Below, piece after piece: positions 1 to 37,826 of a stretch of 50,271 bases of DNA. Below the pieces are notes generated by a model. The model was not told the origin of the DNA, ran no database searches, and saw nothing but the letters and a program-made list of their open reading frames with translations. Position 1 is the stretch's first letter. Each line of letters begins with the position of its first letter. The stretch is taken from NCBI GenBank assembly GCA_023818695.1, contig JAMWCF010000004.1, positions 1-50,271 on the forward strand, given 5' to 3'. Made by a program: the position numbers and the translations under genes. Source of the DNA: Candidatus Omnitrophota bacterium. Lineage in GTDB: Bacteria > Omnitrophota > Gorgyraeia > 1-14-0-20-64-10.

Positions 1-3000
1 TCCAGCTTCACGTTCGTCACCGTCGACGGACTCGTCGTCGTAATCCGAATCGTGTGGCCGCTCGAGGACACCGGCAAATCCGCGTTCGGATTCGGGTACA
101 GGTCCACCGTCACCACCGGCCGGATCGCGAAGTTGTTGTCCGAGGCGTCCCACACCACTGACGGATAGTCCGGGTCCTCCACCTTGATTTTGGCCGTCTC
201 CGTCTTTACATCCGCCACCACCCAGTCGTAGCTCTGCGGCCCGTTGCCGCTGTTGACGATGTTCTGGCCCGCCGGCCCCCCCACCGTCGCCTGACCAATC
301 AACGTCCAGTTCGACCCGCCGTCCGTCGAGTAATACAGGTTCACCGGCTCGACATTCCCCGTTCCGGTCCACGTGATCTGTTTCGTCACCCCCTCATTCC
401 AAATGATGCCGGCCCCGCTGGGAATGTTCACCTGCAGCCGCCCCAGGATCCGGTTGTTCGTGGTGGATGTCGCCACCACCGTGTTTGGATAGTTGGGATC
501 GCGGACCCGGATCTTGAACTGGGAGGTGATGTGATTCGGCGCCGGCGCCCAGTTGTTATAGGTCTGCTCCACCCCGCTGACGCCGGCCGCCACCGTGTCG
601 ATCGACGTCCAGTCGGATCCCCCATTGAGCGAATAGAGCAGCTCCACCTGGCTCCAGGTCCCGGTCGGCGTCCATTTGATGTTCCCCGCCGTCCCCACCT
701 CCCAATCTTCCGATCCGGTCGGGGCTCCCAGCGCCAGTTTCCCGGATATCTCAAAACTGTATTCGGAAACATCATTCACGTTGGGGTTGCCGGTATCCAC
801 GATCTTCACCTTCATCACCTTGCCCAGGATCTGGTCCGGTACCCCTCCCGGCCAGGGGAAACTCAAATCGGCCGGGTTAACGGCAGATCCATTGAGCTGG
901 TTCGGGAAGGTGGAGCCGCTGTTCGTCGAGTAAAAGATGTTGAGCCCGGAAAGGTTTCCGTATTTCGTCCAGGTGATCGAGTACGGCTCTCCCACATGGA
1001 GTTCGATGTTATCCGCGTTGGGGGCTGTCAGAACCACCTGCCCCTTGACGGTGAAGACGGCGTCCGAATCATCATTGACCGTCGAGTCCTGGTTATCCAC
1101 AATCTTGATCTTCGCCTGGTTGCTCGTCTGGATCGCCTCCGAGATGTACCAGGGGAAAGACAGGTCGGCCGCCGCCAGCGCCTCCGCCCCGGCGATCGTG
1201 GTGTAGGTGGGAGTGGTGGAGCTGCCGTCCGGCGCGTACTGGATCTTCACGGTGTGCCCGGCGGTCGCGAAATCTCCTTTCTTCGTCCAGGTGATGTTGT
1301 AGGTGGACCCGACGTCCCACGATTCGGTGCCGAGGGTCGGCGAAGTGAGGGTCAGGTCTCCCTCCAGTTTCGCCAGGCCGCTTCCGGTATTCACCGTGAT
1401 CCCGGTGGACGGATTGTACGCCGGGTCATAGACCCTCACCTTAAGCTGGTTCGATATGACAGCAGGCGTTGGATTCCAGTAATAAGATCCGGAGTTCGGA
1501 ACCGTGTAGGGATTGGTCCCGTTGACGTAGCTCCAAGTCGATCCGCCGTCCGTGGAATACTGGAGGATCACGTTCGAGATGCCGGTGGCCGTTCCCGGAT
1601 CCCAGTTTATGGAGTAGGTGCTCTCCGCCGTCACCGTGTGTCCGTTTTCCGGCTGCAGGATATCGAAGACGCCGACCAGGTGGAAGTCGGTCGAGGCATC
1701 CTGGATCACCAGCGCGTATCCCTCCGAGTTCGCGTCGGTCACCTTCACCCTGGCCGTCTGCGTCACCGCATCCGGCATCTCCGTCCATACATGGGAATAG
1801 GTACCGGGAACCGCGTGGGATTTTGTCGTCACCAGACTGTAGGTCGAACCGCTGTTGGAAGAGTAGTAGATCTTGACCGAGGTGATCGAACCGGTGGTCT
1901 GGTAGGTGATGTTCCGGTTCTTCGGGCTTACGCCCCAGTACTCCCCGCCGACCGGGGACTGCAAGTCGATGCCGCCGACGATGTGGAAGACCCCGGAATT
2001 CCCGTAAACGTTCGGGTTGCCGGTGACCGGTGTTGCGTCCGTGACCCGGACGACGGCGTTCTGGGTGATCTGGTCCGGCACGTAGGGGGCCGGCCAGGTG
2101 TAGGTGGTGCCGGAGGCGTTGGCCACGCCGCTTTCGATCGTCACGAAGGTGCCCCCGTTGACGCTGTAGGCGAGGTCGACGTTGGTGATTTTCGTGCCGG
2201 TCCTGCTCCAGCGGATCGCAGCACTTTGGCTCCCAACCGTCAGGTCCGCGCCCGCCGCCGGCTGCGTCACGGTGATGACAGGTCGGATTTTGAACTGGGA
2301 AGAGATCAACTGGGTCGCCGGTTTGTTCACATCGGTCAGCCGGATATAGCAGTCGTCGCTGTTCTCATCCGCCACCCCGGCGCTCCAGGGATAGGTGTTG
2401 CCGCCGCTGGAATTGTCGAAATTGCTGACGATCGTGGTGTAAGAGCCGGCCGCAGAGGTCTTGTACTCGATCTTGACGTTGGTGATGGCACCCGTGGTGG
2501 TCCAGGTGATCGATTTGCTGGTGTCTCCCACGTTCCAGATCTCACCAAACGCGGGGGAGGTAATCGTGTTGAAGGCCGGTTTCACCTCGAAGATATTATC
2601 CGACACGTCGAAGATGTTGCCCGCATAGGCATCGGTCCCTGTCTGGATCTTAACCTTGACGTCGGTGTCGATCGCCGCGGCCGGAATCGTCCAGAGATAG
2701 GGGCTGCTGTTGGTGATGGCGGTGCTTTCGATCACGCCCGGGTAGGTGCTCCCGCCGTCCGTGCTGTAATAGAGTTTCACCGTGGAGACCGGCCCGTCGG
2801 TGGTCCAGCTGATATTCTGCGACGTGCCGGCCGACCAGACCTGCGTCCCATCGGACGGGACAAGGATGACCAGTCGGGAAACCATCGTGAAAGGGTCGGT
2901 GGAGACTACCCCCTGCGAGGGATCGGCGCTTAAGCGGAGCTTGATTTTCATTTGCGTGTTCTGCTCGGTCGATATCGCGTTGCCCGGAATCAGCCAGTCG

Positions 3001-6000
3001 TACTGTCCCAGGGAAGAGGCCACGCCGTCCTGCACCGTTCCCAGGTAGGTCGAACCGCCGTCTGTCGAGTATTTGATGTCGATGTTCCCCATTGAGGCCC
3101 CGACGCGGGTCCAGGTGATCTGCTCCGTGGTCCCCATCTTCCAGTTGTTCGGGTAGGGGGCGGTGGCAGGGTAGGTGAGGGTCAGTTTCTGAATCTTGAA
3201 GGAGCCGGAGACCCCTGCCACGCCGCCGGCAGACGGGTCACTGTCATCCGGATCGGACACTTTGATTTTGCAGGTCTCCGAGGTCTGATCTGTAACCGGC
3301 CAGTCGAAGAAGCTCACCGTGTCCGGGTTCAGCCCCGTGGTGATGGAAATCGGGTAATCGTTGCCGGCGCCGCCGTTGGTCTTGGAGAGGTCGATATTCA
3401 AGTTGCCGTACGTCGCCTGGGTGACGCCGGCGACAGTCCAGCTGATCCTCTTGGTCGATCCGACAAGCCATGTCTCCCCGGCGATGGGAGCGTCGACCAC
3501 GATGTCTCCCTTGATCTTGAAGATGCCGGACTCCCCGTAAACGTTGGCCGGATCGGAACCGACGCCGGTCTCTTCCACTCGAACCTTCACGTTGTTGCTC
3601 ACCGAAGGGGGCGTATCCCAGCTCAAGGAGCCCTGGTCGGCATCCACGCTGGCGCCGCCAGGCACCTCGGTCCAGGTGCCGCCGTTTATGCTGTAAAGAA
3701 TCTTGACCTGGTCCAGGGCGGCGGCCGGGTCCACCACCCAGGTGATTGGATAAACGGTATCAACCCGCCGGATATCGTTGGTCACCGGGGAGGTGACGGT
3801 GATGGAGGGAACGATTTCAAAGGTTTCATCCTGGCCCACCAGGTCGGGGCCGGTGTCCATGTTGTCATGGTCGACCGTTTCCCAGATCCGTATTTTCCCC
3901 GCCGTGGTGGGGGTCGTGCCGGCCGGGATCAGCCAGGCGTAGGTCCTGTTGGCTGCTGTGCCGGCGTCATAATCGGTGACGATCGCCGGATCGACCCAGG
4001 AAACACCGGTGGTCCGGGAGTAATAGATGTCGACGTTGCCAACCTGCCCGTCTACCGTCCAATCGATGTTGTAGGCCTTCCCCGTGGCCCACACATCGGT
4101 GACAGCCGGCGAGGTGATGGTGATCGTCGGACGGATCTCAAAATCGCCATTCGATGCATCTTGGACGGTGTCCACCGTCAACCCGGACCCTTCGTGCTTG
4201 ACCCGGATCCTCATCGTCTCGCCGGTGTAGTCAGGCGCAATGGTCCAGCTCTTGGTGCCCGCCGTGCCGCTGACGCCGGTGAAGAGGGCCGTTCCCAACC
4301 AGCTCGAGCCGCTGTCGATGGAAAGCTCGATCTTGACGGTACCGATGTTGCCGGTGTGGTTCCACTCGATATCGTGGGTGGTGCCGACGTTCCAAATCTC
4401 GCTGCCGTTCGGGGCCGTCACCGTGACCGACCCTAGGATCACGAATGGGCCGTTGGAGACATCGAAGTTCCGACTACTGGTGGAGATGCTGGGGTCTGAG
4501 ATCTTGATCTTGCAGTTGCTGGAGATGATGCTGTCGTTGCCGCTGCCCATGGTGGCCGGGATGTTCCAGGCGTATTGCCCGGCGTCGGCCTGAATGTTCG
4601 CGGTGGTGTCCACAATCATGTAGGGGAAGGTCGAACCGCCGTCTGTGGAGAGCTCAATCCGAATGTTGTCGTCCTTGATATTGTGAGCCCAGTTCCAGGT
4701 GATCATGTGGGTGCCAGCCCCCGGCTGGTCGATCGCCCATATCTCAACGTCGTCCACCTCCTGGAAAATGCCGTCTCCGTCCAGGTCCCCGTTGGGGCCG
4801 GTGATATTCAGCGGGGGGAACTCCCCGACCCAATAGCTGGTGGTAACTGTCGACGTCGCCGCAGTTTCGCGAGTCAATACCAAGCTTTGCGCGCCGGAGA
4901 GCTGCCCTCTGACCATGATCTCATCCAGGCCGTTCTGGTCACTCGTGTTGCCCGCCGTAGAGATAAAAGCGAAAGAACGGTTAAGATCAATGGTGTTCCC
5001 CAAACTGATGGTCGATGCCGTCCCGGTAAAGGAGCCCGTCCCTTTTTGCGAAAAAACCTCGTTTTTGAACTCCAGGAGCTGCCAAACGACGTTTGTCGCA
5101 TTGGTGGTGCCGTACCGGGTGAATGTCAGATTATTCACCGTGTTTCCTGTGCCGGTCATGGTGGCATAGACGCTGTACCGGTTCTCGCGGCCGGCGGCGG
5201 AGGAGGTCGGCCGCCTCTGGACAAAAAGCATCGATTTGTCCCCCTTCACAGCGTTGTAGCCGCCGCTGGTCAAGCTCACCGAGGCTTGGGTGGCACCGTT
5301 GGCGATCTGCGTCACCCCCTGCTGGATGTCCACATCGGTGTCGAACTCGATCACCTGGTAAGAGATATCGTTGTTATAGGTGGAAGTGGCCTCGCCTCTC
5401 TCAATCAGCAGAGACTGGGTGGTTGGCTCCGCCCCGGTCAGGCGGGCCGCGTATTGGTTGAACTCGTCGCCGGTTGTGCTGTTGGCCAGCGATTTCCAGC
5501 TGATGATCGGGAAGGAGCGGTCCAGCACGACGGAGGATGGCAGGGTGATCGTCTTGGAGGTGGTTGTCTCCGAAAAGACGCTGAACCCCGTTATCACATT
5601 GACCCCGGAATCAAACTCCACCACCATCCAATCGATGGTTATCGCCACCGAGGACACCTGTCGCGCAAATTGGATAGCGGTGGGGTCATCGATCATAGCC
5701 ATGACGTCCTGCCTTCTTCGGTCATTATCGTTGCAGGAAGCGGTGGCGATGATGAACGTCTTGTTGAGATCCAGATTGACCCCTCCCAACTGGCCCGACA
5801 AGCTCACGACCAGGTTTTCCTGGGAAGTACTCATCGTGGTGGTCCCGCGCAGGACCCTCTTGATCTGGAAGGCGGCCGCCTTCGGCGCGTCAATCCCCTC
5901 CAGGAGCGCTTTCAGAGGCCGGGGGGCGGAAGGTGGAATCGGCAGGGGGACACCAATCACCGCCATCATCAGGACCAGCAGGTGGACAAGCGTCTTGAAC

Positions 6001-6017
6001 CAGAGGGTCCCTTTCAT
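1..6017 (-). CDS. Giant secreted surface/adhesin-like protein (>2005 aa, 3' end outside window): signal peptide, four ~88-aa 'W-x-V-x-E-F' repeats, then ~15-16 tandem ~100-aa Ser/Thr-rich Ig-like repeats
   Basis: ATG at 6017 overlaps the upstream TGA (ATGA). Translation begins MKGTLWFKTLVHLLVLMMAVIGVPLP. The same frame gives coherent protein at the points checked (4430: SVTVTAPNGSEIWNVG; window start: GHTIRITTTSPSTVTNVKL). A YSTDGGSTW/Y-type motif recurs about every 300 bp. It is absent from the ORF track, consistent with no stop codon inside the window. Confidence 0.9.
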   Translation of the reverse strand, partial: MKGTLWFKTLVHLLVLMMAVIGVPLPIPPSAPRPLKALLEGIDAPKAAAFQIKRVLRGTTTMSTSQENLVVSLSGQLGGVNLDLNKTFIIATASCNDNDRRRQDVMAMIDDPTAIQFARQVSSVAITIDWMVVEFDSGVNVITGFSVFSETTTSKTITLPSSVVLDRSFPIISWKSLANSTTGDEFNQYAARLTGAEPTTQSLLIERGEATSTYNNDISYQVIEFDTDVDIQQGVTQIANGATQASVSLTSGGYNAVKGDKSMLFVQRRPTSSAAGRENRYSVYATMTGTGNTVNNLTFTRYGTTNATNVVWQLLEFKNEVFSQKGTGSFTGTASTISLGNTIDLNRSFAFISTAGNTSDQNGLDEIMVRGQLSGAQSLVLTRETAATSTVTTSYWVGEFPPLNITGPNGDLDGDGIFQEVDDVEIWAIDQPGAGTHMITWNWAHNIKDDNIRIELSTDGGSTFPYMIVDTTANIQADAGQYAWNIPATMGSGNDSIISSNCKIKISDPSISTSSRNFDVSNGPFVILGSVTVTAPNGSEIWNVGTTHDIEWNHTGNIGTVKIELSIDSGSSWLGTALFTGVSGTAGTKSWTIAPDYTGETMRIRVKHEGSGLTVDTVQDASNGDFEIRPTITITSPAVTDVWATGKAYNIDWTVDGQVGNVDIYYSRTTGVSWVDPAIVTDYDAGTAANRTYAWLIPAGTTPTTAGKIRIWETVDHDNMDTGPDLVGQDETFEIVPSITVTSPVTNDIRRVDTVYPITWVVDPAAALDQVKILYSINGGTWTEVPGGASVDADQGSLSWDTPPSVSNNVKVRVEETGVGSDPANVYGESGIFKIKGDIVVDAPIAGETWLVGSTKRISWTVAGVTQATYGNLNIDLSKTNGGAGNDYPISITTGLNPDTVSFFDWPVTDQTSETCKIKVSDPDDSDPSAGGVAGVSGSFKIQKLTLTYPATAPYPNNWKMGTTEQITWTRVGASMGNIDIKYSTDGGSTYLGTVQDGVASSLGQYDWLIPGNAISTEQNTQMKIKLRLSADPSQGVVSTDPFTMVSRLVILVPSDGTQVWSAGTSQNISWTTDGPVSTVKLYYSTDGGSTYPGVIESTAITNSSPYLWTIPAAAIDTDVKVKIQTGTDAYAGNIFDVSDNIFEVKPAFNTITSPAFGEIWNVGDTSKSITWTTTGAITNVKIEYKTSAAGSYTTIVSNFDNSSGGNTYPWSAGVADENSDDCYIRLTDVNKPATQLISSQFKIRPVITVTQPAAGADLTVGSQSAAIRWSRTGTKITNVDLAYSVNGGTFVTIESGVANASGTTYTWPAPYVPDQITQNAVVRVTDATPVTGNPNVYGNSGVFHIVGGIDLQSPVGGEYWGVSPKNRNITYQTTGSITSVKIYYSSNSGSTYSLVTTKSHAVPGTYSHVWTEMPDAVTQTARVKVTDANSEGYALVIQDASTDFHLVGVFDILQPENGHTVTAESTYSINWDPGTATGISNVILQYSTDGGSTWSYVNGTNPYTVPNSGSYYWNPTPAVISNQLKVRVYDPAYNPSTGITVNTGSGLAKLEGDLTLTSPTLGTESWDVGSTYNITWTKKGDFATAGHTVKIQYAPDGSSTTPTYTTIAGAEALAAADLSFPWYISEAIQTSNQAKIKIVDNQDSTVNDDSDAVFTVKGQVVLTAPNADNIELHVGEPYSITWTKYGNLSGLNIFYSTNSGSTFPNQLNGSAVNPADLSFPWPGGVPDQILGKVMKVKIVDTGNPNVNDVSEYSFEISGKLALGAPTGSEDWEVGTAGNIKWTPTGTWSQVELLYSLNGGSDWTSIDTVAAGVSGVEQTYNNWAPAPNHITSQFKIRVRDPNYPNTVVATSTTNNRILGRLQVNIPSGAGIIWNEGVTKQITWTGTGNVEPVNLYYSTDGGSNWTLIGQATVGGPAGQNIVNSGNGPQSYDWVVADVKTETAKIKVEDPDYPSVVWDASDNNFAIRPVVTVDLYPNPNADLPVSSSGHTIRITTTSPSTVTNVKL

Positions 6018-6424
6018 GGCGCGGTCTGCTCCCTGGAGCTGTAGGCCCCTTTCAACGTCTGCTTGACGAGACCAATCTGAACGGCGGCTGTTTTCGTGAC
6101 GATCCGGGTCCCCTCCCGGTCGAGCCGGTAAGCCTGCTTGTACTTCACCTCGACGGTGTCTCCCCGCTGCAGTTCGGCCAAAGACTTCAGGGGGGATTTC
6201 AGCTTCGTTTCACTCGTGATGGGAATCAGCATCTCCTCCGCCTGGCCCTTGGACCTGGAAAACTCGACGCTGATCGACCGCTTGCCAACATGGACCAGCT
6301 GGCCGATGACCTCCCGCAGATCGGTCTTCTCATCTTCTACGGCGAATTCAGCTCGCGCGCCGACCGGACAGGACAAGGCCGACAGAAGAACGAAAGCAAG
6401 CAGAAAGACGGTCGGTATTCTCAT
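6014..6424 (-). CDS. Small secreted hypothetical protein, probably OB-fold-like beta protein
   Basis: 136-aa ORF with a signal peptide (MRIPTVFLLAFVLLSALSCPVGARA) and the motif SLAELQRGDTVEVKY. It overlaps both neighbours. Confidence 0.75.
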   Translation of the reverse strand: MRIPTVFLLAFVLLSALSCPVGARAEFAVEDEKTDLREVIGQLVHVGKRSISVEFSRSKGQAEEMLIPITSETKLKSPLKSLAELQRGDTVEVKYKQAYRLDREGTRIVTKTAAVQIGLVKQTLKGAYSSREQTAP

Positions 6425-7746
6425 CAGAGCGTCCTCCGGGGGCTGTCAGACGGCTGGACCCCGATGAAAACGAAATCCTGCGGCGGCCCCTCTTTCGGGT
6501 GCCGGCTGCAGATCCCTCTCATCTCGCCGCCCCGCAGCTCCCCTCTCCAGAAGACAACCTCCTCCTTGGGCCCTTCCTGCATCGTCTCCCATCGCAGGGT
6601 GCCGTCCGCGTGAAGCACGGAGGTGTAATTGGACCCTTCAAACCCCCGGCCGGAAAGGTGCGAAGAAACCATGGTTCTGCCGTCAAAACGCAGGGTATCC
6701 ATCTCCAGCTCCGGATTCCCGGAGGCGTACATCGGCTTCATCTGAATTTCCCAGCGGGTGCCGGCCAGCTCCGGCGAAGAAACGAAAGAGGCGGAGCGGA
6801 CTTCCGGATTCGATGACACGGCGATCTCCTGCCGAGCAATCGCCGGCCCCTTTGAGATGCGCGGCTCCCCGCCGCCGACCGAGGCGGTCTTTTGCGCCGG
6901 CTGCGGTGCGGGAAGGCCCACCCCGGGACCGACGTTCACCAGACCGGCGGTATTCAGCGAAATCCAGGCGGTCAACACAAGCGCCACGCTGGCCATCGTG
7001 AGGGAAAAACGCTTGTCCAGATCTTTCTCAAGGGCGGTCAACGCGACAACCGGTCCTCCGGGCGTTGACGCTTTCGCGGCCTCCGGAGAGGGAAGATCCT
7101 GCGCTTGTTCCCGGACGGAATCCACGAAAGCGGCCGGGCCAACCACCGGTCTGCTCAAAAGCTTTTCCCGGCGGAGCCACTCCTGCTCCGGGATCGAAAC
7201 CAGGTAATCTTCATAGGTCATGCCGGAATGGGCGGACTGCATGTGATACAGCAGCTCCCCGGCTTCAGCGGAGAGGTCCAAATGGGAGAGAATCCCCTTG
7301 CCCTCCTCCAGATAGCTTGGCAGACTGCTGAACCGGTAAGAGGAAGGCCTCTCGGCCAGCCCCTTTCGGACAGGCAAAGCATGGATGTAATCGACCAGCG
7401 CGGAAAGGGAGCTTTTCTTCTCCACCACAGACGCCTTGTACCTCCCCTTGAAGAGATGGCCGGTGAAATCGTGGCGTTTGCGGAACAGCTTGGTGTAGCG
7501 GGAATTCAAGGCATGCATCAGATCGGAGACGGTGGTGCCGCGGGCCACCTCCAGAACAAGGTGGATCTGGTCCGGAAGCAGGAGATAGCCGTACAGCTTG
7601 AAGTCGTACTGGCCGCGGTAGCCATCCAGAAGTTCCTGGAAGGTCCGGAAATCGGCTTCATCCTTGAAGAGGAAGCCGTGGGCCCCTGCCTGACAGGTCA
7701 CGTAATAGAGAACCCCTTCCATATGGATCCGCAGGGGTCTAGGCAT
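6424..7746 (-). CDS. RAYT/IS200-like (Y1 HUH) transposase domain with degenerate active site, fused to a TM helix and a C-terminal extracytoplasmic beta domain (440 aa)
   Basis: The N-terminus MPRPLRI..GVLYYVT..YGYLLLPDQIHLVLE..LNSRYT..GHLFKGRYKASVVE..DYIHALPVRKGL..YRFSSLPSY follows the RAYT pattern. It is followed by hydrophobic FSLTMASVALVLTAWISL and a domain shared with 23292-23924. Start placed at ATG 7746 (purine-rich RBS) rather than 7932. Confidence 0.85.
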   Translation of the reverse strand: MPRPLRIHMEGVLYYVTCQAGAHGFLFKDEADFRTFQELLDGYRGQYDFKLYGYLLLPDQIHLVLEVARGTTVSDLMHALNSRYTKLFRKRHDFTGHLFKGRYKASVVEKKSSLSALVDYIHALPVRKGLAERPSSYRFSSLPSYLEEGKGILSHLDLSAEAGELLYHMQSAHSGMTYEDYLVSIPEQEWLRREKLLSRPVVGPAAFVDSVREQAQDLPSPEAAKASTPGGPVVALTALEKDLDKRFSLTMASVALVLTAWISLNTAGLVNVGPGVGLPAPQPAQKTASVGGGEPRISKGPAIARQEIAVSSNPEVRSASFVSSPELAGTRWEIQMKPMYASGNPELEMDTLRFDGRTMVSSHLSGRGFEGSNYTSVLHADGTLRWETMQEGPKEEVVFWRGELRGGEMRGICSRHPKEGPPQDFVFIGVQPSDSPRRTL

Positions 7747-7876: not shown

Positions 7877-7900
7877 AAAAAAAAGAGCGGCTTCCACCGC
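7877..7900 (-). terminator. Putative intrinsic terminator (riboswitch expression platform)
   Basis: The minus strand reads GCGGT-GGAA-GCCGC followed by TCTTTTTTTT: a short stem with a GNRA loop and U-tract, about 75 nt downstream of the aptamer. Confidence 0.55.
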
Positions 7901-7971: not shown

Positions 7972-8055
7972 TCACTGGCAACCCGGCGGCCCAACCATCC
8001 TCGGGCCCGTAGTTTTGCGCCCCCGCCTTTCGGCGGGTTTGCCTTTTTCAGTGCT
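7972..8055 (-). ncRNA. c-di-GMP-I (GEMM-I) riboswitch
   Basis: The minus strand reads CACTGAAAAAGGCAAACCCGCCGAAAGGCGGGGGCGCAAAACTACGGGCCCGAGGATGGTTGGGCCGCCGGGTTGCCAGTG. It has GGCAAACC, a P2 stem with GAAA tetraloop, CGCAAA, a P3 ending GCCGGGTTGCC, and P1 CACTG/CAGTG. Confidence 0.85.
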
Positions 8056-8103: not shown

Positions 8104-8236
8104 CCCAGGCGGCAGATTATTACAACCCCTTCCATGCCAAAGAATTATATTCTTGCAAAAGGTGCATTTTAAACCTTAGTTTGTCATCTGCTTTCTCCTG
8201 CGGCAGGATTTTGCATGGAAATAGGTATCCCCCTAT

Positions 8237-8563
8237 GTGAATCAAGAGATCGAACCCCTGGTCCGGTCACCGGTTACCATTGAATTCCTGGATGTGGCCG
8301 AATCGGCCTGTTTTCCAAGCGGCATCTCCCAGCATTACGTGCTGCAGGTCGACATCGCGCTGACGACGAGCCCACGCTACCACTACACCGCTCAAAAACT
8401 GCTGGTCCTGCGCAAAAGAACCGGGAAGACGGAATACGTGGAAGACGAGAGGGCGATTCCTGATTTCTTCGATTCGGACACATACCGGCGCTTGAAGGAA
8501 CGGCTCCTGCAGCTCTTCCAGGAAGCGGCGCAGCCCTCTCCCGCCTCCGATCCTGCCGGTTAA
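8237..8563 (+). CDS. Hypothetical protein (108 aa)
   Basis: GTG-start ORF with globular composition. It fills the gap between the AT-rich promoter region and the convergent TMTC-like gene, whose stop it overlaps. Confidence 0.55.
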   Translation: MNQEIEPLVRSPVTIEFLDVAESACFPSGISQHYVLQVDIALTTSPRYHYTAQKLLVLRKRTGKTEYVEDERAIPDFFDSDTYRRLKERLLQLFQEAAQPSPASDPAG

Positions 8564-12361: not shown

Positions 12362-12368
12362 CCAACTC

Positions 12369-13238
12369 TCAACGATACAGGGTCAGGATGACCGATCCGA
12401 TCCATAAAAGAAGGGCCAGGAGCAGCGGCGGATCCGATAAAACGGCGTCGGTCGGATCCAGCGCTTTCTTCTGGATGTGCATCAAGTAAAGGTACCGGAA
12501 AATCCCGTAAACCACAAAAGGAACCGTGTAGATGAAGCCGAACTGGCCCACTCTGGAGGTCACCTCCGGGGAGACGCAGTAGAGGGCGTAGCAGAGGATG
12601 GCGGAGGCGGTCAGGATGGCGGTCAGCTGATCGATGAAAGCCGGGCTGTAATCGGACAGAACTTTTCGGTGGCGCAGGGCGGAGGAATGCAGGACGGCCA
12701 ATTCCTGACGGCGCTTCGACAAACCAAGAAAAAGCCCCAGGAAAAACATGCTCAACTGCAGCCAGTGGGAAGGGATCACGTTCACCGCGACGGCCCCGGC
12801 CCAGACCCTTACGACAAACCCTCCGGAAATGGTCATGGCGTCGAGAATAACCTGCTTCTTGAGGACGGCGGAGTAGGCGGCGTTCATGGCAAGATAAACC
12901 AGAAGGACCCCTCCCAGACGGGGATCCTGCCGGTAGGCCAGCGCCTCGGCGGCCGCCATCAGCGCGGCCGAAAGAACCCAGACCTGCCGGAGAGGAATCT
13001 TTTCGGCGGCAATCGGCCTGTTCCTTTTCATGGGGTGGAACCGGTCCACCCGCCTGTCTAAGAGGTCGTTCATCAAGTAGACGCCGCTGGAGGCCATACA
13101 AAAAATGCCGACTGCGAAGAGGGCGTCGGCGATCAGGGCCGGATCGGTCATCTTCGCGGAGAAAATGAGGGGAGCCATAATGACGACGTTTTTCAGCCAC
13201 TGCCTGACCCGCAGACTATCTAGAAACGCCGCGATCAT
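12369..13238 (-). CDS. UbiA-family prenyltransferase, decaprenyl-phosphate phosphoribosyltransferase-like
   Basis: LRVRQWLKN, SSGVYLMNDLLD..DRFHPMKRNRPIA, YSAVLKK..ILD, LSKRRQEL, PFVVYGIFRY, DPTD; multiple TM helices; AAGGAGG RBS. Confidence 0.9.
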   Translation of the reverse strand: MIAAFLDSLRVRQWLKNVVIMAPLIFSAKMTDPALIADALFAVGIFCMASSGVYLMNDLLDRRVDRFHPMKRNRPIAAEKIPLRQVWVLSAALMAAAEALAYRQDPRLGGVLLVYLAMNAAYSAVLKKQVILDAMTISGGFVVRVWAGAVAVNVIPSHWLQLSMFFLGLFLGLSKRRQELAVLHSSALRHRKVLSDYSPAFIDQLTAILTASAILCYALYCVSPEVTSRVGQFGFIYTVPFVVYGIFRYLYLMHIQKKALDPTDAVLSDPPLLLALLLWIGSVILTLYR

Positions 13239-15184: not shown

Positions 15185-15245
15185 TGATTGTCATGTACGA
15201 TCCCTCCATAGTATACTTCGACTACGAAGTCAGTGGAGGAATGAA

Positions 15246-17099: not shown

Positions 17100-17102
17100 A
17101 AA

Positions 17103-21938: not shown

Positions 21939-22972
21939 TGTTCTCTCCTGGCACGCTGGGCGTTTAGTTGTTCCGACAAATCGAGGGCAAGCACGAGATC
22001 GGCTATCCGGTTGTTGGCGGCCGCCAGCTCATTCTTCATCCGAGCATACTCATCCTGGCGCTGCTGAAGCTCCCGAGCCAGCTGTTCTTTGGCGTTCACC
22101 GCCTCCTGAAGCTCCCGCTGGAGATGCTCCAACCGCTGCTGGGACTCCGTCTTGAGATCCGCCATCTGGCGCTCCAGCTTATTCATCCCGGATCGCGCGC
22201 TCTTGGCGCTTCGTTCAAAGTGGTTGCGCTCCTCCTCCAGTTTCTCCATTTTGGCTTCCAGGAAATCGAGCCGGTCCTGCAGTTTCTCCTTCTGCCGGAC
22301 GACCGGCTCCGCCTGCCGCCGGGCCTGCTGGACAGCTCTCTCCAAGCTCTTTTTCTCCGACTCCAAACGGCGATTCTCGACATCCAAGGAGGCTACTCGC
22401 TCTTTCAGGCCGGTTATTTCGTTCTGCGCCTCCTGCAAAGAAAGCTCCACCCTGGCCAACTGGCGATTCTTCTCATTCAGGGCCTGGCGTTCCGCTTTCA
22501 ATTCCGCCTGCAGCCCCTTTTGGAACCTCTCGATCCCATCCATACCGCTCTGGATCGCCTGAAGCCGGGCGGTCCGTTCCTGCAACATTCGGATCAATTC
22601 TTCGGGGCTCTTTTTGCCCAACTGGACCGGATCCAGATTGACCGCGCCCGGCCGAACATCCATGCTGGAAAGCTCCAAGCGCGTCCGTTCCAGGTCGCTT
22701 TTCACACGGGCCAGCTCCTGCCGCTGGCCCGCCAACTCCTGCTTCGTCTCTTCCAGCTCCTTTTCGAGATGGTCCCGGCGCTCCTGGACCTTGGCCAGCT
22801 CCTCGCGGATTCCTTTGACCTGCCGCATTTGAGAGGCCAAGGCCTGACGGTCTTGAAGACGGCTCTTTACCGCTTCCGAACGGGAAATTATTTTCCAGGC
22901 GACGCTGGTGAGCAGGACGGCGGCGATGGCGATCAAAAGGTACTTACCCCACAGCCCCCGGGGCTTGGTCAT
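21935..22972 (-). CDS. Membrane-anchored coiled-coil protein (~345 aa)
   Basis: N-terminal TM (KYLLIAIAAVLLTSVAW) followed by continuous heptads. The stop overlaps the next ATG. Start is ATG 22972 (alternative TTG 23008). Confidence 0.82.
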   Translation of the reverse strand: MTKPRGLWGKYLLIAIAAVLLTSVAWKIISRSEAVKSRLQDRQALASQMRQVKGIREELAKVQERRDHLEKELEETKQELAGQRQELARVKSDLERTRLELSSMDVRPGAVNLDPVQLGKKSPEELIRMLQERTARLQAIQSGMDGIERFQKGLQAELKAERQALNEKNRQLARVELSLQEAQNEITGLKERVASLDVENRRLESEKKSLERAVQQARRQAEPVVRQKEKLQDRLDFLEAKMEKLEEERNHFERSAKSARSGMNKLERQMADLKTESQQRLEHLQRELQEAVNAKEQLARELQQRQDEYARMKNELAAANNRIADLVLALDLSEQLNAQRARREQ

Positions 22973-23014
22973 GGACCCTTCCTGTCCCCTCTGTTTTTCT
23001 TCAGGCAAGGATTA

Positions 23015-23291
23015 GAGCCCCTTTCACAACCTGGCGTGAGCCGGGTTGCGTGCGCCAGGCGGCCAGATCCAAGGAACGACGACGAAGGCGTACTCCCTGG
23101 AGCACGTCGAGGAGGAGTGACGCCGGAGATGGCCGCCTGCCGCCGCAACCCGAAGGGCTGGGTTGAAATGCATCGCATCGCTTCGTCGCTCGTCGTCGCC
23201 GTATCTTGGTTCCATGATACGTCTCCTCCTCGCTCCTCGCGCTGCTCGCATTTGAGCCCAGCGCGGCCACGCGAGGTTGTGAAAGGGGCTC
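23015..23291. mobile_element. MITE (277 bp) with 24-bp terminal inverted repeats and TTA target-site duplication
   Basis: Left end GAGCCCCTTTCACAACCTGGCGTG (23015-23038); right end CACGCGAGGTTGTGAAAGGGGCTC (23268-23291); 23/24 match. TTA lies on both flanks (23012-14, 23292-94). No transposase ORF inside. Confidence 0.88.
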
Positions 23292-23924
23292 TTATTTTTT
23301 CTTCGTTTTCTTGGTTGTTGCGGCCGGCTTCTCCGGTTGAGCGGCCGGCGGGGATGTCGGCTGCGCCTGCTGCGAGACAGACGTCTCCTCGGCAGGCGGC
23401 TGCGCCGGCGTTTCCGTGGCCGGAGGCGGTTCAGGGGGGGCAGCCGGCTTGAGCCGCCCGGAGAAGGACCAGTCGGTCACTGTGCCGCTGGCATCATGCT
23501 GACTCAAGATGCCGCTCATGGTTTCTCCAAAGAGCTGTCCCTGCCAGAAAACCACGTCTCCCCCCTCCGAAGCGCTCTGCATCGTCTCCCAGACGGGCAC
23601 CCCGCCCTTGATCGAAATGCTGAAATTGGTCGGTTCGTATCCCTTCTTCCCGAACCATTCGGAGCTGATTTTTCCCTTTTCGAAACGGAGGATGTCCGCA
23701 ACGGCCTTTTCCTTTTTGTCGCTCATGGGGGCCAGTTGAATTTCCCACTGGGTGCCGTTCAGGGCTTCGCGGGCCTTCTTCTCCGCTTCCAGGGCCAGCT
23801 CTTCCGGGGTTTTCTGCGGCTTCGCCGTCGTCGGCGCGGGTTTCTTGGCGCTCCAGCCATCCGAAGCCCACAGAAAAACCGCGAGAAAACCGGCCAACCA
23901 CACGAAGGACTTTCTATTCGTCAT
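23292..23924 (-). CDS. Secreted protein carrying the same beta domain as the C-terminus of the RAYT fusion, with a Pro/Ala/Lys-rich tail (~210 aa)
   Basis: Signal peptide (MTNRKSFVWLAGFLAVFLWASDGWSA), then LNGTQWEIQLAPM..DILRF..WETMQ..VVFWQG..MSGILS. Alternative start at 23951. Confidence 0.82.
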   Translation of the reverse strand: MTNRKSFVWLAGFLAVFLWASDGWSAKKPAPTTAKPQKTPEELALEAEKKAREALNGTQWEIQLAPMSDKKEKAVADILRFEKGKISSEWFGKKGYEPTNFSISIKGGVPVWETMQSASEGGDVVFWQGQLFGETMSGILSQHDASGTVTDWSFSGRLKPAAPPEPPPATETPAQPPAEETSVSQQAQPTSPPAAQPEKPAATTKKTKKK

Positions 23925-23947
23925 CTTCTCTCTCCGATCTGTCCCGA

Positions 23948-25099
23948 TCATTCTACCAGTTTCTTTTCTGTCTCCAAAGTTTCCCATGACGCGATGTATT
24001 TTCTCACCCAGGAAGCGTCCTGCGCGTGAGGCTTCAACTGAAGGTACTTCCGAAAAAACTGGACCGCTTTTTCGGTATCCGGAATATACTCGGCATAAAT
24101 GACGCCGATGTTGTAATAAGCATCGGCGTCATCGGGCCTGATCTCAACGACCTTCTTGAATTCTTTCAGCGACTTGCCGTACTGTTTCTGCTCCGTCAGC
24201 AAAACGCCCAGGTTGTAATGCATGTCGGCCGTTTCCTTCACCAGCCGCTCATGCTGGCGGGCCAGCTTCGTCACTTCCGAGGGGACCCTGTTTGCCCTCC
24301 TCTCCAGCTCTTCGCTCTCGGCGACGAGGGCGATATAATCTTTTTCGAGCTTCTTGAGCCGGTCCATCAACTTCTGCAGCTGCGCTCTGCCTTTCTCCTC
24401 TTTGTCCGAGACCTCGCGCAGCGCTTTCTCGGCCGCCTTCAGTTCCCTTTCATTTTCCGCTAGCTCTTTTTCCCGCTCAAGCAGTTCCTTCTTCAGCTGC
24501 TGCTCCTTCGCCCCTTTCTGTGCGAGAGTCAGCTGGCGCTGGACCGCATCCCGCTGGGCCGTCAGCTTCTCGTTCATCTCCTTCAGGGAGGCCATCTGGC
24601 TCTCCAGCGGTTCCCTCTGTCCCAACAAGAGTCTGTTTTCGCGAGTCAGCCGCTTGATCACGGCATTCAGGCGCTGTCTTTCCCCCGCCAGAAGCTGGCG
24701 GTCCCCCTGCAGCCCTCTCAACTGCGACGCCAGACTGTCCCGCTCCTCGATCAAAACCTGTTTTGCCTGGTCCCACACCGCCTGTTCCCGCTGCAGCCGG
24801 GCATGCTCTTTCTCCAGATCCGCGTATTTCCGACTCAAGCTGTTGTAATCCTGCTGGAGCAGCTCCCATTGGTGGCCCAGAGAAGCGTACTGCTCCGAGA
24901 GGATCCTCTTGCGCTCTTTGGTCTGGGCCAGCTGGGTGGAGAGATCACCGTTGAGATAAAACAAGACGAAGACCACGCTGATCCACACCAGCGTCCCGGT
25001 CAGGTAAATGATCCTTCTCTTCCAGCTGAACGGCGCGGGAGCGCTTCTGGGCGAAAAGGACGCCGGCTGCGGCGGGGGAGTGGGTATCTCTGTCGTCAA
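23948..25099 (-). CDS. Membrane-anchored coiled-coil protein with C-terminal TPR repeats
   Basis: TM IIYLTGTLVWISVVFVLFYL, ~230 aa coiled coil, TPRs MHYNLGVLL and AYYNIGVIY. Confidence 0.85.
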   Translation of the reverse strand: MTTEIPTPPPQPASFSPRSAPAPFSWKRRIIYLTGTLVWISVVFVLFYLNGDLSTQLAQTKERKRILSEQYASLGHQWELLQQDYNSLSRKYADLEKEHARLQREQAVWDQAKQVLIEERDSLASQLRGLQGDRQLLAGERQRLNAVIKRLTRENRLLLGQREPLESQMASLKEMNEKLTAQRDAVQRQLTLAQKGAKEQQLKKELLEREKELAENERELKAAEKALREVSDKEEKGRAQLQKLMDRLKKLEKDYIALVAESEELERRANRVPSEVTKLARQHERLVKETADMHYNLGVLLTEQKQYGKSLKEFKKVVEIRPDDADAYYNIGVIYAEYIPDTEKAVQFFRKYLQLKPHAQDASWVRKYIASWETLETEKKLVE

Positions 25100-25100
25100 T

Positions 25101-26828
25101 TCAGGACCGTTCCCTCATGCTTTTCCGGAGCCGGAATCTGGGCGGTGACGGCTCTTCTTCCCGCGGTTTTTCCTCCAGCTCTTCGAGGCGGGGATCATCC
25201 TCCCTGATCGGATTATAATCCCGGAAGGACTTGAAAGCCCCGGTCTTCTCGTCCCCGGAAACGAACTCATCCCCGCTGACGATGTGGGGCGTGATGAAAA
25301 CGACGAGCTCCTGGCGAGAATTGTCCCTGTCCCTCTGGCGGAAGAACTCTCCGAATAGCGGAATGCGGCCGAAAAGCGGGACCTGGTCGTTCTCGTATTT
25401 TTTCGTGTCCTGGGCCAATCCCCCCAGAACAACCGTCGTACCATCCTTGACCATCACAAGCGTCTCCGCGGTGGAGGTGCTGACGATCGGGATCTGGTTG
25501 CCAATGGGAGTCGTAAGGGTCCTAACCACGCTGCTGACCTCCGGCTTGATTTTCATGGTGATGTATCCGTCGGAATTGATCGACGGCGTGACGGAAAGCT
25601 GGGTCCCCACATCGATGAACTGCACCTGCTCGGCGGTCGTGCTCGTGGACTGTCCGGTGGTGGTGGTCGTGGTCACGTAGGCCTCCCTCGTCCCCACGAG
25701 GATCTTGGCCTCCTGGTTGTGCACCACGAGCACCCTCGGGGTCGCCACCAGCTTTGTCTGCCCCAGGGTTTCCAGATAGCGTAGCAGCTCGTAGCCGTCG
25801 TTATTCAGGAGGCCCAACGCCAGCTTCCCCCATTTGTTGCCCAGCGGAACCTGGGCGACGGAGGCGGCCGTGGTGGTGGAGGTCTGGCGGAAGTCCGCCA
25901 CTTTGTCGACCCCATGGAACTTGATGTTCCTGAAAACGGCGTCCCAGTCGATGCCGCTGTCCAGATTGTCCGTGAGGTTCACCTGGATGATCTTGGCGTC
26001 GATCAGAACCTCCCGCGTCTTCCGATCCAGCAGGGCGATCATCCTCTCCACATCCTTCATCCGGTCAGGCAGTGTTTTGACGATCAGCTGGTTGCTGCGT
26101 TCGTCCGCCTTGACGAACCCGAGCTTCCGGAGCTCCAGATGGTCCTTCAACCGCTCCTCTATCTGCTTGGCGTTAGCGTACCGAAGATCGAAAACACGGA
26201 TCGTCGCCTGCTTCTCAAGGGTCTCCAACGCGCTCTCGATCCGCTGAAGAGCGGCCGGCGTGTCCATGATGACCACCGTGGCGGAATCCTCATCGACGAG
26301 CAGGCGGCCGATTTCGCTCTTCAGCGCGTCCAGCATGTTGAAAGCCGCCTCCGGCGCGGCGTATTTCAGTCGGAACGTCTGAACCTGCCTCAAGTCCGAG
26401 TATTTCTTTCCGTTGAGGACCTTGTACTCCTCCTCGGACATCACGTGGTAGATGTTCCCCTGCCTCATGTAAGCCAACCCGTTGCTGCGCAGAATCAGCT
26501 CAAACACATCCCGGATCGGCACGTCCGTCAAAGAAAGGGTGACCCGGCCGGTCACCGTCTTGGTCGTCGCCAGGTTGAACCCACCTTTCAGGGCCAGATA
26601 TTTCAGAGCGTCCACGACATCGGTGGATTTGAAATCAAGGGAAACCGGCTCCTCCATGCCCCGGGAAGGTATGGCCGCCGCTTCAGGCGTCACGGCGGCG
26701 AATTGCTGACTCTCCTCTTGAGCGAGAGCCGGAGAAGGGTGCGCGGCGAGGGACGCGAGTAAAAAGGAAAAGGCGGCGACTCCGGCCTTCGCTGTTTTTT
26801 CAATACGACAGACGGATCTCTTTGCCAT
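25101..26828 (-). CDS. Secretin (GspD/PilQ family outer-membrane channel, ~575 aa)
   Basis: VSLDFK..DVVDAL, FRLKYA and FDLRYA N-domains, ADERSNQLIV, EVLIDAKIIQV, TPRVLVVHNQEAKILVG, VQFIDVGTQLSVTPSI, VKDGTTVVLGGL, VPLFGRIPLFGEFF, ELVVFITPHIV. Confidence 0.93.
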   Translation of the reverse strand: MAKRSVCRIEKTAKAGVAAFSFLLASLAAHPSPALAQEESQQFAAVTPEAAAIPSRGMEEPVSLDFKSTDVVDALKYLALKGGFNLATTKTVTGRVTLSLTDVPIRDVFELILRSNGLAYMRQGNIYHVMSEEEYKVLNGKKYSDLRQVQTFRLKYAAPEAAFNMLDALKSEIGRLLVDEDSATVVIMDTPAALQRIESALETLEKQATIRVFDLRYANAKQIEERLKDHLELRKLGFVKADERSNQLIVKTLPDRMKDVERMIALLDRKTREVLIDAKIIQVNLTDNLDSGIDWDAVFRNIKFHGVDKVADFRQTSTTTAASVAQVPLGNKWGKLALGLLNNDGYELLRYLETLGQTKLVATPRVLVVHNQEAKILVGTREAYVTTTTTTGQSTSTTAEQVQFIDVGTQLSVTPSINSDGYITMKIKPEVSSVVRTLTTPIGNQIPIVSTSTAETLVMVKDGTTVVLGGLAQDTKKYENDQVPLFGRIPLFGEFFRQRDRDNSRQELVVFITPHIVSGDEFVSGDEKTGAFKSFRDYNPIREDDPRLEELEEKPREEEPSPPRFRLRKSMRERS

Positions 26829-27453
26829 CGCGCTCCAGGACAACACCGTGTGCCGTCACCTCTTTGACCATCATCCCATTGACCTCCTCTCCGACTCCCA
26901 CAAAATAGGTCCTGCCCCCCTTCGCGTCCTCGATGAGGGCGCGGGGAGTCCCCGACCGGTCTATGCCCACCACGGTCAATCCATCCGCCAGATTCTCGAC
27001 CTGCGGCGACGCGGTTGCGCGGACGTCGGGGATTTTCTTTACCGTCGTCTCAAACGGCGTACGAACGTCCGCGGAACCGATGTAAACGGAGACCGGCCGC
27101 ATGTAATCCTCCGGCTTTTCCGACGTCTGCCCGCCCGGCGCGCGGATGTCGATCGTTTCGTTCAGAGGCGCCTTCTTCCCGGTTTCATAGGGAGCCATAA
27201 CGTCCCTGACGACATAAACGCCCAGAGCCAGCAGAACGATCCATAACAGACGGCTGCTCAAGCGGATCCGCTCCAGGAATTCATCCTCGGACCGCCGTCT
27301 CCTGAAAGAGGACCCTCTTCTCCCGAACCGGGCAAAGATCCCCAGCCATCCCTCCTTGGAACTGGAAAAGGAGAGAGCGGCCGACCGGATGCCGGACGGG
27401 TCTTCGATCAGCTTCAGCAAACGCTCTTCTGCAGTGCTTCTGTCGGCGACCAT
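26800..27453 (-). CDS. GspC/PilP-like single-pass membrane protein
   Basis: TM LLWIVLLALGVYVV and C-terminal LTVVGI..PRALIED..RTYFVGVGEEVNGMMVKEV..VVLERDGKEIRL. It lies immediately upstream of the secretin. Confidence 0.72.
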   Translation of the reverse strand: MVADRSTAEERLLKLIEDPSGIRSAALSFSSSKEGWLGIFARFGRRGSSFRRRRSEDEFLERIRLSSRLLWIVLLALGVYVVRDVMAPYETGKKAPLNETIDIRAPGGQTSEKPEDYMRPVSVYIGSADVRTPFETTVKKIPDVRATASPQVENLADGLTVVGIDRSGTPRALIEDAKGGRTYFVGVGEEVNGMMVKEVTAHGVVLERDGKEIRLSY

Positions 27454-28277
27454 CCCGCTTCAATATCCTCCTGAAGGACGTTATCCACCAATTCCCGGTC
27501 CACCACGGACCGGTTATACATCACCAACCCCCGAAGGGCCCTGTGGCAGAGCATGGCAATTTTCCTCGGATAGCCGGAGGAGGCCCGATAAATGGCGTGG
27601 ATCGCTTCATCCAAAAAGAGGGGGGAAGGGAAATGGTACCCGGCCTCATACAGCCGGAATTCCACCATCTCGCGGGTCTCTTCGAAGGTGAGCGGGGTCA
27701 GCATTGATTTCATGCTGATCCTGTCGACCACGTTGGGCATGCTCTTTAAGAGGGGCAGCAACTCCATTTGGCCCAGCAAGACCAGCTGGAGAAGTTTTGT
27801 CTCGTTGGTCTCATAGTTGAGCAGAACCCGCAGCGCCTCCAGGGAAAGAGGATTCAGCTTATGGGCCTCATCAATGATCAGGACGACCGTTTTGTGCTCC
27901 TCCACCCCTTTGCGGAAAAGAAACCGTTCCAGCCCTTCCCTGTAATCCAAAAGGGTGGGACGGACGGCCGCCGTCTCAATGCCGAAGGAGCGGATGAGGG
28001 CTTGATAAAACTGCTCCTCCGACGGGAAGGTGGGATCCAGCATCATGTGGAAGATGAAGCCCTCCCTTTCGCTCAACATCTGAATCAACTTCCGGCCCAA
28101 GGTGGTTTTGCCCACCCCCACATCCCCTATGACGACGCTCAAACCCCGCTTGAGGCGGAATTCAATGACCAGGTTGGCCAGTGTCGCCCGGTGCCGCTGG
28201 GACTGGTAGAAAAAGAGCGGATCGGGACTGGTGGAAAAAGGTTCCCGATCGAGTCCCAGAACCTGAAAGTAGCTCAT
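27414..28277 (-). CDS. ExeA/GspA-family AAA+ ATPase
   Basis: YFQVLGLDREPFSTSPDP, Walker A GDVGVGKT, Walker B LIIDEAH, LQLVLLGQMEL, SGYPRKI. Confidence 0.92.
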   Translation of the reverse strand: MSYFQVLGLDREPFSTSPDPLFFYQSQRHRATLANLVIEFRLKRGLSVVIGDVGVGKTTLGRKLIQMLSEREGFIFHMMLDPTFPSEEQFYQALIRSFGIETAAVRPTLLDYREGLERFLFRKGVEEHKTVVLIIDEAHKLNPLSLEALRVLLNYETNETKLLQLVLLGQMELLPLLKSMPNVVDRISMKSMLTPLTFEETREMVEFRLYEAGYHFPSPLFLDEAIHAIYRASSGYPRKIAMLCHRALRGLVMYNRSVVDRELVDNVLQEDIEAGWSPTEALQKSVC

Positions 28278-37813: not shown

Positions 37814-37826
37814 CGCATTCCACTCC

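Follow-up and report, generated by a model that had tools for sequence, protein, structure and literature searches.

Omnitrophota are uncultured, ultra-small and probably predatory or parasitic bacteria. A locus in one of them raises the question of why a small, apparently exported protein encoded in a secretin operon should share its domain with a transposase-like membrane protein that is encoded directly ahead of a giant surface protein. The locus lies in a stretch of 50,271 nucleotides from a Candidatus Omnitrophota genome (assembly GCA_023818695.1, contig JAMWCF010000004.1, positions 1 to 50,271), which we refer to as the window. We found that the two proteins are the solo and the fused form of a new barrel family and, because the pair recurs in many Omnitrophota beside giant-protein genes, that it probably ties the export pore to these giant surface proteins. 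The two barrel-bearing genes are:

23292..23924, minus strand: solo barrel protein, 210 amino acids, found in a public collection as the protein that begins at the ATG at 23924
6424..7746, minus strand: fusion protein, 440 amino acids from its MPRP start (Y1_Tnp, 1.5e-10; barrel profile, 5e-46)

An earlier note, made from the letters of this DNA, had described the solo protein as a secreted paralog of the outward-facing domain of a membrane-bound RAYT. The paralogy is real. A single BLASTP comparison of the solo protein (residues 57-186) with the open reading frame (ORF) of the fusion (residues 363-499) gave 47 identities in 139 positions (34%), 68.9 bits and an E value of 7e-18, and both sets of coordinates fit. 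The common domain of about 115 residues makes up part of the solo protein and, in the fusion, the C-terminal end (6436-6786). When the source genome (936,820 bases in 5 contigs, Omnitrophota, 61% complete) was searched in six frames, exactly two copies came up, at 23295-23987 and at 6439-6774 (37% identity over query residues 74-185, E = 7.5e-16), the second of which agrees with the span of about 6450-6770 that the hand alignment had given. The full ORF of the solo protein runs from 23292 to 23987 on the minus strand; 23924, as first proposed, is the ATG of the 210-residue form and the likely start, and the stop codon ends at 23292.

The solo protein consists of a signal-like N-terminus, the barrel (encoded at 23433-23780) and a Pro/Ala/Thr/Glu-rich tail that closes in a Lys run. 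Its N-terminus, as read from the sequence, is basic, then hydrophobic, with an A-x-A-like end ahead of the barrel. A signal-like segment was found in all 72 solo-type ORFs, 71 from relatives and one from the window, except one that is cut by a contig end, which fits the proposal that the protein is secreted. Low-complexity Pro/Ala/Glu/Thr-rich tails were seen in the solo proteins of the window (23295-23432) and of the relatives' loci L014, L051, L059, L060, L063, L064, L066, L075, L086 and L094, where they end in a lysine run plus Gly-Trp-Phe or Gly-Trp-Trp; other solo proteins are tailless. This tail may be a sorting or anchoring signal.

No Pfam family (E ≤ 1) and no NCBIfam model matched the solo protein, and the shared domain is unrecognised by both, as the earlier note had said of it; nor is it a common known family with many unlinked copies. 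When modelled by AlphaFold2 on an alignment of ten copies (predicted local distance difference test, pLDDT, 92.6; predicted TM-score, pTM, 0.83), the domain is predicted to fold into eight antiparallel strands (DSSP) and two short helices with an up-and-down topology as in avidin, lipocalin and calycin barrels. In a wide structural search the best match was the receptor barrel of Cap15 (7n34; Z 12.1, root-mean-square deviation 2.3, 97 residues aligned), and further matches were designed barrels, avidins (Z 9.3-9.6) and neisserial surface-lipoprotein barrels, with eight-stranded outer-membrane barrels also present at a poorer fit. The domain thus has the same barrel as Cap15, avidins, lipocalin/calycin-like proteins and the neisserial lipoproteins (Z 8-12) but differs from these soluble barrels in that it matches no Pfam family, that Foldseek against the PDB gave a best E value of only 1e-3, and that its sequence identity to every structural match is at most 14%. 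Because of these low identities, we regard it as a generic small barrel without a close solved relative. Its structural neighbours in a protein atlas, all with scores below 0.9 and useful as leads only, included calycin-like clusters. The match to Cap15 also suggested c-di-GMP (cyclic dimeric GMP) as a ligand, an idea that we set aside because the predicted location of either barrel is extracytoplasmic; for a barrel in the periplasm, as predicted, a cyclic nucleotide of the cytoplasm does not suggest itself as ligand.

A profile search of 1.84 billion cluster representatives found 1464 with the barrel at E ≤ 1e-3, 935 of them at E ≤ 1e-10. Among the best 150 of these 1464, 140 were short forms (142-268 amino acids) and 10 were long forms (343-440 amino acids) with a C-terminal barrel; eight of the 10 long forms match Y1_Tnp, seven of them above the cut-off. 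Other searches returned less: a word-index search for homologs gave 3 proteins only, a locus search with the single protein gave one locus, from Candidatus Omnitrophota, and a cluster look-up gave one name, 'hypothetical protein', again from Candidatus Omnitrophota. The solo and fused forms constitute a new barrel family.

The solo gene follows four genes of a secretin module:

27414..28277, minus strand: AAA_22 ATPase, GspA/ExeA/MshM-like, the first mapped gene of the module (Pfam AAA_22, 2.4e-22)
26800..27453, minus strand: small GspB/GspC-like protein, assigned by ortholog match and position, with no Pfam match above the cut-off in the window
25101..26846, minus strand: secretin (Pfam Secretin PF00263, 2.6e-48; Secretin_N PF03958, 3.8e-23; STN PF07660, 2.7e-6)
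23948..25099, minus strand: coiled-coil protein with C-terminal TPR repeats (TPR_1, 3e-11, and related TPR models, residues 289-368)

All five genes lie head to tail on the minus strand, overlapping or at most 23 nucleotides apart, so that the solo gene does sit in the secretin operon, where the earlier note had placed it. Pfam recognises both the C-domain and the N-domains of the secretin; of the NCBIfam subtype models (PilQ, GspD, MshL) none reaches its cut-off, PilQ and GspD scoring best. The ATPase scores 167.6 bits against NCBIfam TIGR03015, under the cut-off of 324.5, and its orthologs hold the same position in most of the relatives' loci. The place of the GspB-like gene between ATPase and secretin is likewise conserved in relatives, and its ortholog in the genome G029 matches T2SSC (PF11356) at 2.1e-12. 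The window contains no gene for a GspE/GspF-type inner-membrane platform and no pilin gene, and the 284 bp of spacer downstream of the solo gene, when scanned, contained neither a promoter-like nor a terminator-like site.

We surveyed barrel, fusion and linkage across Omnitrophota genomes and found the domain in 73 of 401, or in 66 of the 340 high-quality ones. For the analysis of synteny, one solo match per genome was taken from 60 other Omnitrophota genomes with up to 10 kb on each side, and the proteins of the window were mapped onto these loci. The genes for secretin, TPR protein and solo barrel are consecutive in 50 of the 60 loci (a secretin is present in 51), and in 18 no other mapped gene lies between solo and fusion. 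Matches of fusion length (an open frame of at least 380 amino acids) occur in 42 genomes, 38 of which also have a match of solo length; the solo-fusion pairs lie on one contig in 26 cases and within 6 kb in 19. This proxy by length is sound, as the Y1-like domain is present in 21 of 21 barrel ORFs of at least 395 amino acids and in 0 of 72 shorter ones in the fetched loci. Co-occurrence, which the earlier note had named as a check, speaks for the proposed link. The observation is real and more general than that note could see. Its link between the secretin export machinery and the fusion stands in gene order and co-occurrence, with 'RAYT' surviving only as a label for the fold.

Among 40 relatives, the domain was found in five, and full-length orthologs of the TPR gene only in the four solo-bearing genomes (G004, G013, G020 and G029). 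Because the TPR and solo genes share the same four genomes, we conclude that the whole module comes and goes as one piece. The gene order of the window is shared by G004, and G029, which belongs to another family, has ATPase, GspB-like, secretin, TPR, solo, fusion, small and giant genes in a row, with about 340 bp between solo and fusion. A further genome, G016 (96% complete, no barrel), holds a TPR-gene fragment of 202 amino acids (L110, G016:C5:78189-78743; 48% identical) with an internal TGA, which may be the remnant of a decayed module. The module also varies in its content: two secretins occur in 17 of the 60 loci (L052, L057, L065, L069, L070, L074, L080-L082, L084, L085, L087, L089, L090, L098, L100 and L104), nearly always as tandem secretin-TPR pairs ahead of the solo gene, and a second, diverged AAA_22 ATPase directly follows the solo gene in 10 loci.

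The duplication is old. In a tree of 93 barrels, which rests on few columns and has many open forks, 17 of 21 fusion barrels form one group together with the split form of L097 (Shimodaira-Hasegawa-like approximate likelihood ratio test, 94). The label fused or solo changes 4 times on the tree compared to a mean of 19 for shuffled labels, and 0 of 500 shuffles was as low. The fusion barrel of the window pairs with that of G004, and its solo barrel sits with those of G004 and G013. Despite these limits, the tree excludes a recent copy within the genome and indicates that solo and fused barrels diverged long ago.

The full ORF of the fusion extends from 6424 to 7932 on the minus strand, with the methionine of MPRP at 7746 as the likely start. 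It encodes a RAYT-like domain (about 7096-7746), a membrane helix (about 6937-7032), a disordered linker and the barrel. The full-length AlphaFold2 model (18-row alignment, pLDDT 78) is confident over its N-domain (residues 1-217), continues with a long helix (239-270), a linker of low confidence and the barrel (331-430), and thus predicts a single membrane helix with a C-terminal periplasmic domain. The N-domain matches Y1_Tnp (PF01797) with 41.7 bits against a cut-off of 23. Its best Foldseek match was 4er8, the E. coli RAYT with a REP (repetitive extragenic palindrome) hairpin (E = 5.1e-7; TM 0.76, target-normalised), and the TnpA proteins of IS200, ISDra2 and IS608 came next; PDB searches by sequence, with the N-domain or with the fusion alignment, gave matches at chance level only.

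Residues 1-217 therefore have the same fold as RAYT (TnpA_REP) and IS200/IS608 TnpA, and the RAYT label is true in this respect. Unlike in a RAYT, the HUH motif of the window copy is broken, reading Q-I-H where H-x-H is expected, with the first His lost. Conservation fails at both the HUH and the Tyr column: 12 of 23 members of the fusion family retain H-x-H, and in the presumed catalytic Tyr column the 23 divide into 10 with Y, 8 with H and 5 with F. For this column we take the 'Y-I-H-x-x-P' stretch, placed by the coordinates of the Pfam profile; the window copy has Tyr there. Both features are kept in 7 of the 23, so that the catalytic residues appear to be lost in over half of the family, the window copy included, while Y-T-K is conserved in 22 of 23 and one Arg in 23 of 23. 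The score against the NCBIfam model NF047646 (REP_Tyr_transpos) is 64.3, under the cut-off of 80. In the source genome, at its 61% completeness, no 16-mer occurs at least five times, and of 91 distinct hairpins with stems of 9 bp none turns up three times or more. Because of the decayed motif, the score under the cut-off and the absence of a REP family, we consider the RAYT label true of the fold and not of membership or activity, and the fusion is probably RAYT-like and inactive. It also differs from both RAYT and IS200 proteins in that its domain is joined to a membrane helix and a periplasmic barrel and has a riboswitch in front. Two variants were seen in relatives: in L097 (8910-10190, genome G221) two adjacent ORFs encode the Y1-like domain and the barrel separately, and L095 (7647-9379, G118) has a Y1-like protein of 353 amino acids without a barrel beside a solo barrel. 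Both are preceded by a riboswitch.

The leader of the fusion gene and the genes that follow it in the window are:

8144..8173, minus strand: promoter-like site of the fusion operon (TTTAAA-18-TATAAT, 10/12; consensus match only)
7973..8052, minus strand: c-di-GMP-I-class aptamer, GGC variant (RF03167, 72.8 bits against a gathering threshold of 59, E = 1.9e-15, model positions 1-80 in full)
7877..7900, minus strand: terminator-like hairpin with a T run, about 130 nucleotides before the ATG (sequence scan)
6014..6424, minus strand: small signal-peptide protein, 136 amino acids, whose start overlaps the stop of the fusion gene
3..6017, minus strand: giant surface protein of more than 2005 amino acids that runs off the window, with an N-terminal hydrophobic segment (ORF; its start overlaps the stop of the small gene)

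The leader (7870-8173, minus strand) is complete, with promoter-like site, aptamer and terminator-like hairpin, the last of which is likely the expression platform. The scan for promoter-like sites near the fusion gene gave 2 compared to a mean of 0.3 in shuffles, and a scan for inverted repeats around the leader gave only a stem adjacent to the terminator and one weak pair. The riboswitch and its terminator, which the earlier note had left unmentioned, are the regulatory input that is actually visible here. As judged from sequence, the fused form is the riboswitch-gated first gene of a giant-protein operon.

An aptamer of the c-di-GMP-I class (RF01051 or RF03167, above gathering) was found in 20 of the 22 relatives' loci that have the fusion or the barrel-less Y1 form, in 18 upstream of the fusion gene (or of a solo-fusion pair) and in 2 between fusion and small gene; the search found none in L058 and L092. 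In the 7 loci without a fusion, where small and giant genes come after the solo gene, the same search found 0. Because of this difference, we conclude that riboswitch and fusion travel as a cassette. Of these 22 loci, 19 continue with an ORF of 146-281 amino acids and then with one of 800 to more than 3200; most of these giant ORFs run past the fetched range, and contig ends cut off the other 3 loci. Homologs of the small protein follow the fusion or solo gene in G004 and in 14 of the 60 loci, in 13 of these with no other mapped gene in between. Where the fusion is missing, the order is solo gene, small protein, giant ORF, and some of these loci have peptidyl-prolyl isomerases (PPIases) between solo and small gene, either with a SurA-like N-domain plus cyclophilin or of the Rotamase_2 type (L048 10825-12300, L061 7451-8911, L053 8836-9873).

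One metatranscriptome contig of 239 nucleotides equals window positions 7870-8108, which is the leader as far as the terminator, and is a weak hint of terminated leader RNA, although it could stem from DNA carry-over. The rest of 5500-25400, including the solo gene and the fusion ORF, is uncovered, which carries no meaning in data that consist of contigs. Four DNA sequencing runs may come from the source sample. In a DNA run (X1), one contig of 19.6 kb matches the aptamer core (window 8003-8050) three times at separate places, and because of this triple match we conclude that another organism or locus in the community has several aptamers of this class.

The reading that we favour takes the solo protein to be a Sec-exported, soluble eight-stranded barrel, encoded by the last gene of an operon specific to Omnitrophota, and to serve as a lineage-specific periplasmic accessory subunit of the secretin machine. 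This machine is encoded directly upstream of genes for giant surface proteins and would most likely serve their export. The fusion would be a single-pass inner-membrane protein with a RAYT/IS200 HUH fold in the cytoplasm and an old paralog of the solo barrel in the periplasm, heading a separate unit (fusion, small and giant genes) that a c-di-GMP-I-class riboswitch and terminator would gate. The two barrels would share one periplasmic partner, which may be the secretin/TPR complex or a common envelope ligand, and once a second messenger permits the operon to be read, the anchored copy would join the soluble one at this partner or replace it. Because of this joining or replacement, the giant-protein unit would be coupled to the pore. 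For this reading as a whole, with the solo barrel as secretin accessory, the anchored paralog at a common partner and the giant-protein unit coupled to the pore, we see an even chance.

Known secretin accessories include GspA/GspB (ExeAB), the MshL-MshM-MshN arrangement, TPR pilotins, and the docking of GspC-HR or PilP on the secretin N0 domain. The module resembles these systems in that an AAA_22 ATPase, a GspB/C-like protein, a secretin and a TPR protein are encoded in one operon with a small periplasmic beta domain alongside. A point of difference is the predicted closed eight-stranded barrel of the solo protein; neither the beta-sandwich of PilP nor that of GspC-HR is among the 50 structural matches listed for the barrel, which does not exclude them. 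The absence of GspE/GspF platform and pilin genes from the window is another.

Several points weigh against the favoured reading. Contact of either barrel with the secretin, the TPR protein or the other barrel is something that we infer, and a complex prediction for the barrels of fusion (22 rows) and solo (66 rows) gave 0.00 and 0.01 against a mark of 0.32, which carries no weight either way. With no GspE/GspF platform in the window, it is conjectural that the giant protein leaves the cell by way of this secretin. Ten of the 60 loci lack the consecutive secretin-TPR-solo order, 4 of them cut by a contig end; L060, L063, L064, L096 and L102 show the solo gene alone with no secretin in the fetched flank, and L092 has fusion and solo, again with no secretin in that flank. 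Matches of solo length only were found in 31 of the 73 genomes, and the fusion-less loci keep their small and giant genes; on these grounds the fusion is not needed for export, and is a conditional add-on and not a core part. The aptamer of the window fits the GGC-variant model best, its class being assigned by covariance model, and we know of no established ligand for that variant, on which a literature search returned nothing. The genome is only 61% complete. Finally, the favoured reading assigns no role to the HUH-fold domain in the cytoplasm.

Because the fusion is a conditional add-on, a regulator also stays in play. Here the fusion would bind nucleic acid, its barrel would sense a signal from the envelope or from secretion, and the solo protein would act as a modulator or decoy like ToxS, so that transcription of the giant gene is tuned. 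In essence this is the reading of the earlier note, by which the two barrels might heterodimerise or sense one envelope ligand, so that secretion state could feed back on adhesin expression; we hold it to be somewhat unlikely. ToxR and ToxS are a bitopic regulator and its periplasmic partner, and the predicted layout of the fusion resembles theirs, with a fold for nucleic-acid binding in the cytoplasm, a single helix and a domain in the periplasm, and with a small periplasmic protein encoded alongside; the solo gene adjoins the fusion gene in 18 of 60 loci. The loss of catalysis in a domain that keeps Y-T-K and the Arg fits binding without cutting, and the cassette of fusion and riboswitch looks regulatory rather than structural. 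However, the cytoplasmic domain has an HUH fold and not the winged helix of ToxR, the literature that we searched describes no HUH-fold domain as a bacterial transmembrane transcription factor, and the presumed partner is paralogous to the sensor domain. Neither genome nor leader yielded a repeated hairpin or an operator-like element, the riboswitch already explains conditional expression, and the fusion is co-transcribed with its supposed target.

A bolder version would make the fusion a new trans-membrane switch, a tethered and catalytically dead HUH binder, made only once a cyclic-dinucleotide riboswitch opens, whose barrel displaces its soluble paralog on the secretin or pairs with it, thereby coupling the export pore of giant predatory or adhesive proteins to DNA or RNA at the inner membrane. 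We consider this rather doubtful.

It is distinctly improbable that the barrels are independent ligand binders of the avidin, lipocalin or calycin kind that serve in scavenging or sensing, with a gene order that reflects co-regulation only and no physical link to the secretin. The nearest folds do bind ligands, namely the avidins, lipocalin-like proteins and the cyclic-nucleotide receptor Cap15, and the neighbours in the atlas include calycin-like clusters as leads. Against this stand the low identities and the best Foldseek E value of just 1e-3, a solo gene that is almost never met without the secretin module (consecutive in 50 of 60 loci), and the occurrence of TPR and solo genes in the same four of 40 relatives.

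We regard as highly improbable an arrangement in which the barrel is embedded in the outer membrane, so that the fusion would be a tether across the envelope, its helix in the inner and its barrel in the outer membrane, and the solo protein a small outer-membrane protein by the secretin. OmpA, OmpW, the OprF N-domain, PagL and NspA are among the structural matches (Z 8.6-10), and the strands, read in the sequence, alternate hydrophobic and polar residues. However, about 115 residues with strands of 8-10 residues are short for a membrane barrel, the matches with the lowest deviation and the best fit are soluble barrels, and past the barrel come tails of up to about 100 residues instead of a terminal aromatic signal. 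Scarcely credible is an active REP-associated or IS200-type transposase fused by chance to a membrane domain, with a solo paralogy devoid of functional meaning: despite the Y1_Tnp match, the RAYT-REP hairpin complex as best fold match and the 7 of 23 members that keep H-x-H and the Tyr column, the motif is Q-I-H in the window and decayed in much of the family, the REP_Tyr_transpos score stays under its cut-off, the 937-kb genome has no recurrent 16-mers (at least 5) or hairpins (at least 3), and the gene is single-copy and syntenic across families.

Around these genes, the window holds further features. Between solo and fusion, two coiled-coil proteins of 357 and 1611 amino acids without a real Pfam family are encoded at 17103-23008 (minus strand); they are present in G004 and G013, which belong to the same family, and not in G029. 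After them come a gene with Ig domains on the opposite strand and then a glycosylation block (8274-15184, minus strand) with a TPR protein of 678 amino acids, a methyltransferase, a GT9 heptosyltransferase-like protein, a UbiA prenyltransferase and DUF2079. In the window this block stands between the fusion and the remaining genes of the cluster; at that place in G004 it is missing. At 37142-41994 and 42029-50113 (minus strand), four proteins with carbohydrate-binding domains (CBM30, CBM11 or CBM9) are encoded beside an ORF of 2694 amino acids without a Pfam family.

The giant surface proteins of Omnitrophota are under active study (West-Roberts et al. 2023, 10.1101/2023.11.21.568195; Seymour et al. 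2023; 10.64898/2026.06.07.730766), and West-Roberts et al. (2023) report that a type II secretion-like locus, which includes gspD and a Rotamase_2 PPIase, is conserved ahead of their genes. The loci reported here are like it in their secretin, in the PPIases of fusion-less loci and in the giant ORFs downstream. The words 'secretin', 'transposase' and 'IS200' occur 0 times in the main text of that study, and because of this we take the barrel pair, the HUH fusion and the riboswitch to be undescribed in that main text; figures and supplements fall outside this search. The pair is likewise undescribed in the searched passages of Seymour et al. (2023) and of the 2026 preprint on complete genomes (10.64898/2026.06.07.730766). 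More broadly, the literature seen on Omnitrophota secretins and riboswitches, on membrane RAYTs and on domesticated HUH domains held no description of the domain, of the fusion or of its link to a riboswitch, although supplements and figures may hold maps of the locus.

The finding extends known kinds of system, namely secretin accessory proteins, bitopic transducers and domesticated HUH domains, to a conserved unit present in 73 of 401 Omnitrophota genomes that comprises a secretin module with a terminal barrel, a riboswitch, a barrel-bearing transposase-like membrane protein, a small protein and a giant gene. For annotation it counsels caution, as 'transposase' is probably wrong as the function of the fusion. 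It offers three handles, which are a candidate family of secretin accessories, a domesticated HUH domain in a membrane protein and a second-messenger switch before giant genes. If the trans-membrane switch outlined above were true, the fusion would be the first HUH-domain transmembrane transducer, together with a new family of secretin accessories. For Omnitrophota themselves, the unit bears on how giant surface proteins are exported and how they are switched on.

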